64,000 nucleotides of DNA from an uncultured Candidatus Saccharibacteria bacterium (GCA_964356815.1 CAYHIR010000003.1:2198-66197); one strand, 5' to 3'. Shown: positions 57,468 to 58,517, counted from the stretch's first letter. Numbers and translations: made by a program. Notes: generated by a model not told the origin, from the sequence alone.

Positions 57468-58517
57468 TCATCTATCGAAGCTCGTGATTTTATCAATTTT
57501 GTTCTTTATTACCCTTCCTCTGCAATGTTCCAGCATGCCAAGATACGAATTAGTAGATTGTCTAAAAGAGTATTCAGAGATTAATTCCCGATCAAATTCT
57601 TGCCGCCGGTTTTCAAGTTTTCTTAGTATTCTATTTTTAGTTTTTGTTCTTAAGATCTGATGATAAGGGAAAATTACATAACCCAAAAAATCTATGCCTT
57701 GAGACCATTTTCGGATAATAATTTTGTTTGGATGTAATTCAAGCGCTAGATCTTCTTTTAAAAATTTACTTATTACCGGCAAAATTTTATCAAGATAATC
57801 TTTATTTCTGGATAGGATCACGAAGTCATCGGCATAACGAATATAATCCTTCACGCCCAATTCTCTTTTTACAAACTGATCAAATGCATTAAGGTAGAAA
57901 TTTGAAAATAATTGGCTGGTAAGATTGCCGATTGGAATGCCTTTGCCTGGCTCAGTTTCAAAGCTAGAAATAATATCTCGCAACAAATCTAAACTCCGAC
58001 CTTTTATCTCCTTCGCCAAAAAAGTAAGAAGAATTTTCTGATCTACGGAGTCAAAAAATTTACGGATATCACATTTAAGTACCCAGACGGTCTTTGTATT
58101 ATTTCTGGATAGCCTCCAAGCAAATTTTTTAAACCTTTCATGTGCCTTGTGTATTCCCTTGCCTGTCCTTGAAGAATAGGAATCGAAAATAAAACTCCTG
58201 TCGAACAAATGCTCAAGAACACGAAATATCGCGTGGTGAAAAAGTCGGTCCCTTACTTTAGCTTTGTGAATTTTCCTGCGCTTGGGATCACAAACAAAAA
58301 AAGAAGAATACGGATGGTGATTATACTCAGAATGGATCAAATCCCGATGAAGCCCAAAGACGTATTCTTCGACATCAATAGAAAAACTCGCGACATCTTG
58401 CTTTTTTAGCTTGCCTCTTTTAAACTCACCCCACGCAGAAAACAAATTTGGTAGAGAAATAATTTTATCGAATAATCCATATCTATGAAGGCTACCCCCC
58501 CCCCGAAATTCCACCAC
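57468..58517 (-). CDS. Diversity-generating retroelement (DGR) reverse transcriptase
   Basis: 349 aa. RT motifs: LKCDIRKFFDSVD (A), GIPIGNLTSQLFSNFYLN (the DGR-diagnostic [I/L]GxxxSQ replaces QGxxxSP), IRYADDFVIL (YADD). It aligns along its length to the Bordetella phage bRT pattern. It starts at GTG and runs through a G10 tract (codons 5-8). Confidence 0.9.
   Translation of the reverse strand: MVEFRGGGSLHRYGLFDKIISLPNLFSAWGEFKRGKLKKQDVASFSIDVEEYVFGLHRDLIHSEYNHHPYSSFFVCDPKRRKIHKAKVRDRLFHHAIFRVLEHLFDRSFIFDSYSSRTGKGIHKAHERFKKFAWRLSRNNTKTVWVLKCDIRKFFDSVDQKILLTFLAKEIKGRSLDLLRDIISSFETEPGKGIPIGNLTSQLFSNFYLNAFDQFVKRELGVKDYIRYADDFVILSRNKDYLDKILPVISKFLKEDLALELHPNKIIIRKWSQGIDFLGYVIFPYHQILRTKTKNRILRKLENRRQEFDRELISEYSFRQSTNSYLGMLEHCRGRVIKNKIDKITSFDR

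Follow-up and report, generated by a model that had tools for sequence, protein, structure and literature searches.

A slippage-prone G/C run in the overlapping 5' ends of avd and the reverse transcriptase gene is probably an on/off switch for a Patescibacteria diversity-generating retroelement

What is a run of ten identical bases doing in the middle of the overlapping 5' coding ends of two genes that serve a hypermutation system? The two genes belong to a diversity-generating retroelement (DGR), which we examined within a 64,000-nt stretch of DNA (hereafter, the window) from an uncultured Candidatus Saccharibacteria bacterium (GCA_964356815.1, CAYHIR010000003.1:2198-66197); one encodes the reverse transcriptase (RT) and the other the accessory protein Avd. 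An earlier note on this DNA had read the run either as a slipped-strand switch that turns RT and Avd on reciprocally or as a homopolymer sequencing error. From comparisons of sequence, we conclude that a conserved, slippage-prone repeat at this position is probably an on/off switch for hypermutation. More specifically, we think it rather likely that the run is a hypermutable simple-sequence repeat, that is, a contingency locus, whose slipped-strand changes in length switch avd, and mostly RT as well, and so gate mutagenic homing.

One run in two antisense reading frames

The plus strand of the window carries ten C at 58495-58504 (ten G on the minus strand), as the earlier note had it. This is the sole G/C homopolymer of at least 7 in the window, where base composition predicts 0.04 runs of at least 10 per 64 kb. 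The run reads Pro-Pro-Pro in the Avd frame (plus strand) and Gly-Gly-Gly in the RT frame (minus strand), and it occupies the middle of a 61-nt antisense overlap (58485..58545) between the 5' coding ends of avd and RT. At one edge of this overlap, the avd ATG at 58485 is the reverse complement of the RT His11 codon (CAT); at the other, the RT ATG at 58545-58543 is the exact antisense of the Avd His codon (CAT) in the motif SIVHK. Because each ATG is antisense to a His codon of the other gene, the avd and RT frames depend identically on the length of the run.

The plus-strand gene is recognizable as an Avd accessory gene by a Pfam bAvd match (5e-16) over 58537-58851; it has 51 homologues, some of them named Avd by their sources, and the N-terminus seen in homologues is M-x-PPP...SIVHK. 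As sequenced, it lacks a start codon. Its domain frame is open from 58489, with no ATG, GTG, or TTG before TTG 58636, and at C10 ATG 58485 is offset from it by a single base, so that translation from this ATG would stop after 14 codons; on the missing start and on the offset, the earlier reading was correct. The public annotation begins at TTG 58636 (58636..58896, plus strand; MEK7185411.1, an 86-aa "hypothetical protein") and is without the first third of bAvd. We rejected a start 3' of the run, since this TTG is the first option there and costs about a third of the domain. On the upstream side, a promoter-like TTGGTA-17-AATAAT (58448..58476, plus strand; a consensus match only) ends 9 nt before ATG 58485, which is compatible with an avd leader that is very short or absent.

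The minus-strand gene encodes a DGR-type reverse transcriptase (Pfam RVT_1, 4e-22). Its homologues, which are Patescibacteria RTs adjoining avd, begin with MNNRxxxxxxGGG...H..F..IISL, and the corresponding ATG in the window, at 58545-58543, had been overlooked in the earlier note; at G10 it reads MNNRAIRVLRGGISGGG and then a stop. The only start possible at G10 is GTG 58517, which gives an RT of 349 aa (57468..58517, minus strand; MVEFRGGGS...) with the run in frame within codons 5-8, as had been described, and which is also the start in the public annotation (MEK7185410.1).

To define how these frames respond to length, run lengths of 7-13 were substituted in the window sequence. At 9 or 12, both genes are in frame from their ATGs: (i) avd as a full open reading frame (ORF) of 136-137 aa (58485..58896, plus strand; MKATPPRNSTTQNPDGSIVHK...), which is readable at these lengths only, and (ii) RT as an ORF of 358-359 aa (57468..58545, minus strand; MNNRAIRVLRGGISGGGSLHRYGLFDKIISL...), which is likewise in frame at no other length modeled. 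With a run of 10, no start codon is available to Avd and RT can be read only from its GTG; with 8 or 11, neither of the two can be read. Run length therefore switches avd and RT together, and the toggle is concordant, not reciprocal. The earlier note had proposed that length 10 turns RT on and Avd off, and that 11 or 8 gives avd its ATG and turns RT off. At G10 the GTG-initiated RT is indeed in frame and Avd is not; however, neither ORF is readable at 11 or 8, Avd comes into frame at 9 or 12 just as RT does, and in 33 of 39 relatives a single length class serves both ATGs (see below). Direct frame modeling thus rules out the reciprocal toggle and the lengths 11 and 8, and we attach next to no credence to them.

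A mechanism can be proposed on this basis. Slipped-strand mispairing at replication would alter the run by one unit in either direction. Given the shared antisense codon register of the two ATGs, a single length class (9 or 12) would open both ORFs and make the DGR competent, while length 10, the sequenced state, would leave Avd without a start and RT at best with its GTG, and 8 or 11 would leave neither readable. A single contraction from 10 to 9 would restore both genes. For cDNA synthesis, the bRT-Avd complex together with DGR RNA is both necessary and sufficient (PMC6182149). Because Avd is required for this synthesis, OFF cells would keep a fixed variable repeat (VR), and rare ON cells would diversify the target gene.

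The junction repeat and its frames across Patescibacteria

We fetched 160 related loci, 153 of which had enough 5' sequence for a repeat census. avd lay directly upstream of RT, and divergent from it, in ∼138 of the 160. A pure G run of at least 7, the kind of homopolymer that the earlier note had suggested seeking in orthologous DGRs, was present at the avd/RT junction, just upstream of the RT core, in 91 of the 153. The lengths of 92 runs (one of them at a locus with too little upstream sequence, outside the 153) were 7 (6 runs), 8 (12), 9 (32), 10 (26), 11 (7), 12 (5), 13 (3), and 17 (1), with a mode of 9-10. In another 10 of the 153 loci, a dinucleotide repeat of 6-17 units, either (GA)n, (GT)n, or (CT)n, took the place of poly-G. 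A long pure repeat of either type was thus found at 101 of the 153 junctions, about two thirds, and none at the remaining 52. Among G/C runs of at least 8 in 763 kb of these loci, 71 lay at the junction, ∼15 at RT 5' ends (these being loci where avd went undetected), and ∼6 elsewhere.

Two Peribacteria-type loci without a junction repeat carry G11 or G10 at another place (L024, 2117-2127; L038, 2121-2130), just downstream of the template repeat (TR) and in the C-terminal tail of avd, where the run reads PPPP and follows a GGW[IM]K motif. DGRs may thus have a second place at which a repeat can occur. A further contig (L029) has two avd/RT junctions, at ∼850 and ∼2480, each with G11, and its second RT looks partial.

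In the RT tree, loci with dinucleotide repeats were scattered among poly-G loci, and repeat-free loci fell mainly into one clade with short, nonoverlapping N-termini (RT, MKIYKN...; Avd, MNDFDIPIFKK). Because the repeat types are interspersed in this manner, GGG makes up just 19% of the Gly codons within RT bodies, and repeat-free relatives are without the GGG and PPP extensions, it is the repeat as such that appears to be maintained. We therefore argue, from these sequence patterns, that selection acts for a repeat rather than for a Gly3/Pro3 peptide.

For every poly-G locus, we then determined the run lengths at which an ATG upstream of the run shares the frame of each conserved domain. Among the 39 loci that had a unique class for each gene, the RT and Avd classes coincided in 33 (p = 6e-11). 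A joint ON class could be assigned in 53 of 76 poly-G loci, of which 10 were ON, 22 were at +1, and 21 were at -1; the observed lengths are thus random with respect to frame (10 ON, 43 OFF). Moreover, 41 of the 43 OFF loci retained intact RT and Avd bodies (medians of 328 and 110 aa past the anchors), and, together with the frame models, this means that a one-unit change shifts the frame of an otherwise intact ORF.

A contrast that is free of any assumption about the run gave the same picture. An ATG in frame before the Avd domain was present in 48 of 50 repeat-free loci, compared with 22 of 76 poly-G loci (Fisher p = 3e-15) and 1 of 8 dinucleotide-repeat loci, and an in-frame ATG for both avd and RT was present in 46 of 50 repeat-free vs 18 of 76 poly-G loci. 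Further, both ORFs are in frame where the run of an overlap-type locus is degenerate (L025, L031, L034, L086, L088, L108, and L114). Since stable sequence is in frame and broken frames are tied to a mutable run, these loci bear the comparative signature of a contingency locus. Of the slipped-strand switch put forward in the earlier note, what stood was a conserved repeat whose lengths vary, and do so at random with respect to frame, next to intact gene bodies; its reciprocal logic and its lengths of 11 or 8 fell away. We regard it as evenly poised whether, in a large Patescibacteria clade of DGRs, targeted hypermutation would itself be phase variable, with one shared repeat gating avd and RT by one length rule.

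The same comparisons bear on the possibility that the run is a neutral mutational hotspot, in which a Gly3/Pro3 overlap drifted to a homopolymer and frameshifts are tolerated or mildly deleterious, with no regulatory role. Lengths that look random with respect to frame would be expected in that case. However, the purity of the runs is far above the codon-usage expectation, poly-G has repeatedly been replaced by other repeat types at the same spot, a repeat persists in many Patescibacteria lineages and at some two thirds of loci, OFF alleles keep their gene bodies intact, and interrupted runs are in frame, and we consider such a hotspot improbable.

A repeat shared by divergent genes could also act on transcription. 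In the hifA/hifB fimbrial switch of Haemophilus influenzae, a (TA)n repeat in overlapping divergent promoters sets the -35/-10 spacing and thereby exerts transcriptional control. The DGR repeat resembles it in that a single repeat would govern two divergently transcribed genes together, and in one sub-family, where RT starts downstream of the run, the run does fall in the RT leader or promoter region. Nevertheless, a promoter spacer whose length sets transcription and not frame is very unlikely here. The promoter-like hexamers of avd in the window lie outside the run, which is downstream of both ATGs (by consensus scan only); in about half of the loci, neither conserved domain has a start codon between itself and the run; and the in-register ATGs on both sides (33 of 39) would be left unexplained. 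The DGR run thus differs from hifA/hifB in lying inside both coding sequences, where control would be exerted through the translational reading frame.

Run length among close relatives

In the window's own organism, total run length was 10 in six independent contigs from several assemblies, found by exact-protein look-ups: ENA ERZ1292625 (Hainich well H41), Logan ERR3858121, Logan SRR32696712, NCBI GCA_038057965.1, a 67-kb contig, and a 221-kb contig. In GCA_038057965.1, the run is interrupted at the same total length, GGGGTGGGGG, by a G>T change (window 58500; position 3120 of that contig, L001) that is synonymous in RT (GGG>GGT). An interrupted run such as GGGGTGGGGG is not prone to homopolymer error; it would also stabilize the run at length 10, the Avd-OFF state.

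Because length 10 agrees in six contigs and one of them has the interrupted run, the run is not a sequencing error. Such an error, with a true length that would put avd or both genes in frame, was the alternative offered in the earlier note, and some support for it can be seen in that long G runs are error-prone and some related assemblies break at the run. Beyond the six contigs, however, run lengths repeat across samples and pipelines in two other species, and in 43 of 53 relatives the frame is broken as well, at +1 in some and at -1 in others. We therefore take a sequencing or assembly error to be extremely unlikely.

Differences in length at the DNA level were found in a Candidatus Falkowbacteria species (Rifle aquifer), where contigs with 0 mismatches over ∼2.5 kb had G12 (L007), G13 (L187-L189), G14 (L193), or G19 (L190 and L191). 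For this locus, 13 and 19 are ON, and 12 and 14 are OFF. The OFF contigs share one VR, and the fetched flanks of the ON contigs end short of it. The upstream gene, which is the DGR target (L187-L194), encodes a protein of ∼695 aa with an AAA_5 domain, called at 692 or 695 aa depending on the assembly; in L007, the VR lies at 1655-1760 and the TR at 2008-2113.

A Candidatus Zambryskibacteria species had G8 in six contigs, with both genes in frame (ON), and a model with one G added (G9) gives the N-terminus "..SKISLGGGFHRH" of cluster members on 17 other contigs. In a third species, C9 was found in nine samples and C8 in one, where ON would be 7, 10, or 13, and RT starts downstream of the run. 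In two further protein clusters, N-termini correspond to frame-shifted readings of one upstream sequence, a correspondence drawn from proteins only. Between L144 (G10) and L149 (G11), the flanks are 93-96% identical. The look-ups for P0153 and P0015 led to one species without a repeat and to a contig that begins at the junction.

In several contigs of one species (L168, L169, and L171, at ∼1790-1960), TR and VR are merged into one chimeric copy, with the ∼490 nt between them deleted; a comparison contig (L170) keeps both copies, at 1817-1953 and 2308-2444. Across samples, the VR-like halves fall into four haplotypes that differ at TR-adenine positions.

Assemblies evidently have trouble at the junction itself. 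Contigs begin or end inside the run in L133, L137, L138, L160, L065, and L112; L195 (828-871) has a 31-N gap directly after it; and L192, L194, and L196 have deletions beside it. Trouble of this kind would fit either within-sample heterogeneity in length or poor sequencing of long G runs. Within a sample, the consensus lengths of G12-G19 do reproduce across pipelines.

Several observations weigh against a contingency locus, and we gather them here. All six contigs of the window's organism total 10, so that no length variation was found within it. No ON-form RT or Avd of this organism was found in a collection of 15 billion proteins, in which exact look-ups (with the RT of 349/348 aa and the run-independent 86-aa avd product), homologue searches, and cluster listings gave only an RT of 348/349 aa and an Avd of 78/86 aa. 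No clear Shine-Dalgarno sequence precedes the avd ATG or the RT ATG, and these start codons are inferred, with the promoter-like TTGGTA-17-AATAAT as the sole support for them in the window. Where RT starts downstream of the run, as it does in one sub-family, only avd is affected. Across the clade, ON loci were fewer than chance predicts (10 of 53 vs 1/3, p = 0.03), a deficit that would also be compatible with frames of no consequence. Lengths of G12-G19 in an Illumina consensus may be untrustworthy, and several assemblies have a break, gap, or deletion at the run. Finally, in the third species, four samples carried four VR haplotypes that differ at TR-adenine sites, while every contig was at an Avd-OFF length. 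With four haplotypes at OFF lengths, an OFF state at the consensus level does not silence the DGR in the population; the diversity came either from a minority of ON cells, whose run returned to OFF, or from OFF alleles that are leaky through slippage.

Under the latter alternative, the run would throttle expression instead of acting as a binary switch in the DNA: slippage of RNA polymerase on the 9-10 nt G/C run, or of the ribosome on CCC-CCC-CCC-C or GGG-GGG-GGG-G, would restore the frame in a fraction of the products. Every allele would then yield some Avd and RT, and length would only tune the amount. The VR haplotypes that vary between samples of a species whose every contig is at an OFF length would fit this, as would the under-representation of ON alleles; run lengths also center near the length of the RNA:DNA hybrid, and Pro and Gly runs are known as slippery or stalling. 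Transcriptional slippage or programmed frameshifting at homopolymers occurs in dnaX of Thermus, in IS elements, and in endosymbiont poly-A tracts, that is, at A/T runs and with a fixed offset. The likeness to these cases lies in a run of about RNA:DNA hybrid length inside an ORF whose genomic frame is broken. The DGR run differs from them in being G/C, or sometimes a dinucleotide repeat, and in having both offsets equally frequent (22 loci at +1, 21 at -1, and 10 at 0), so that the fixed frame offset of programmed recoding was not found and no single programmed shift fits. In addition, dinucleotide repeats at the junction are classical substrates of DNA slippage and are not known to act as recoding signals, the best-documented cases of transcriptional slippage involve A/T runs, and otherwise identical genomes differ in length at the DNA level. 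Taken together, a throttle is possible but unlikely, and slippage of the DNA would be the cause that we favor for the changes in length.

Known switches and the surrounding element

The junction run has its closest counterparts in the intragenic poly-G/C contingency genes of Campylobacter jejuni, Neisseria, Haemophilus, and Helicobacter. As in those genes, (i) a pure G/C run of 7-13 lies near the 5' end of an ORF, (ii) a change of one unit shifts the frame while OFF alleles are otherwise intact, and (iii) near-identical genomes differ in length. The modal length of 9-10 is also similar to that of the phase-variable poly-G/C tracts of C. jejuni, for which 9 is reported (PMC3401435). Two features set the DGR run apart: it sits in two ORFs on opposite strands under one length rule for both, and what it would control is not a surface or restriction-modification gene but a machinery for targeted hypermutation, in uncultured Patescibacteria.

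The element in the window is a complete, chromosomal Patescibacteria DGR. Its gene order, target-TR-(avd)-RT with avd on the opposite strand, is architecture B3, and the target/VR, TR, reverse-oriented avd, and RT are laid out like the B3 DGRs of candidate-phyla-radiation (CPR) bacteria, which make up 90% of the CPR DGRs surveyed by Wu et al. 2018 (PMC5758913). That survey deals with gene order only: a term search of its main text gave a single mention of a frameshift, which concerns TR-VR indels, and none of overlapping starts or of a junction repeat. A term search of the main text of Roux 2021 likewise gave no mention of a junction repeat, and none was described in the literature that we searched on DGRs, Avd, and Patescibacteria in combination with repeats, phase variation, or frameshift, a search that did not cover Paul et al. 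2017 (Nature Microbiology). A run within two antisense-overlapping coding starts that would gate a hypermutation system across many Patescibacteria lineages thus appears to be new here.

Natural control of DGR activity is largely unknown, and a heritable, reversible repeat switch in avd and RT, if true, would supply a concrete mechanism. It would amount to second-order bet-hedging, in which a contingency locus is placed over a diversity generator, with most cells mutator-silent and rare cells firing, and it could account for the inactive appearance of many DGRs in surveys of populations. The architecture is itself unusual, with one homopolymer that encodes Gly-n and, on the opposite strand, Pro-n and that would gate two genes. 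Ecologically, contingency loci would no longer be confined to pathogens but would extend to ultra-small bacteria of groundwater. For annotation, many CPR RT and avd genes are mis-called as truncated or "hypothetical" from a consensus run that is out of frame, of which avd in the window is an example.

The TR (58892..59017, minus strand) adjoins the 3' end of avd, and the VR (59318..59443, minus strand) lies at the 3' end of the target gene (59306..60106, minus strand). Over 126 nt, this TR/VR pair has 18 mismatches; 16 fall at TR adenines and the other 2 at the 3' edge. The VR is the same in all contigs of the window's organism, which are 99.9-100% identical overall. The target is called at 266 aa and its ORF could reach TTG 60226 (266-306 aa); it gave no Pfam match. 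Small ORFs of 80, 33, and 56 aa are called over the TR and the TR-VR spacer (window 58844-59086, minus strand; L003, 5160-5671). These are probably not genes, the 80-aa ORF being nothing but the TR in the target's reading frame.

Elsewhere in the window, an intergenic element of ∼80 nt occurs in three copies (16463-16547, 53973-54053, and 56327-56403) with ∼80% column identity. An Rfam scan of 52000-64000, which covers two of the three copies, found no known RNA family, and ARAGORN, run on the whole window, placed no tRNA gene at any of the three. The core of the element is GC-rich and palindromic (GGCGCCAAGCGCC); the copies are found between rpsG and fusA, downstream of fusA, and at a third place. 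The only other homopolymer of at least 9 in the window is an A10 run at 30640-30649.

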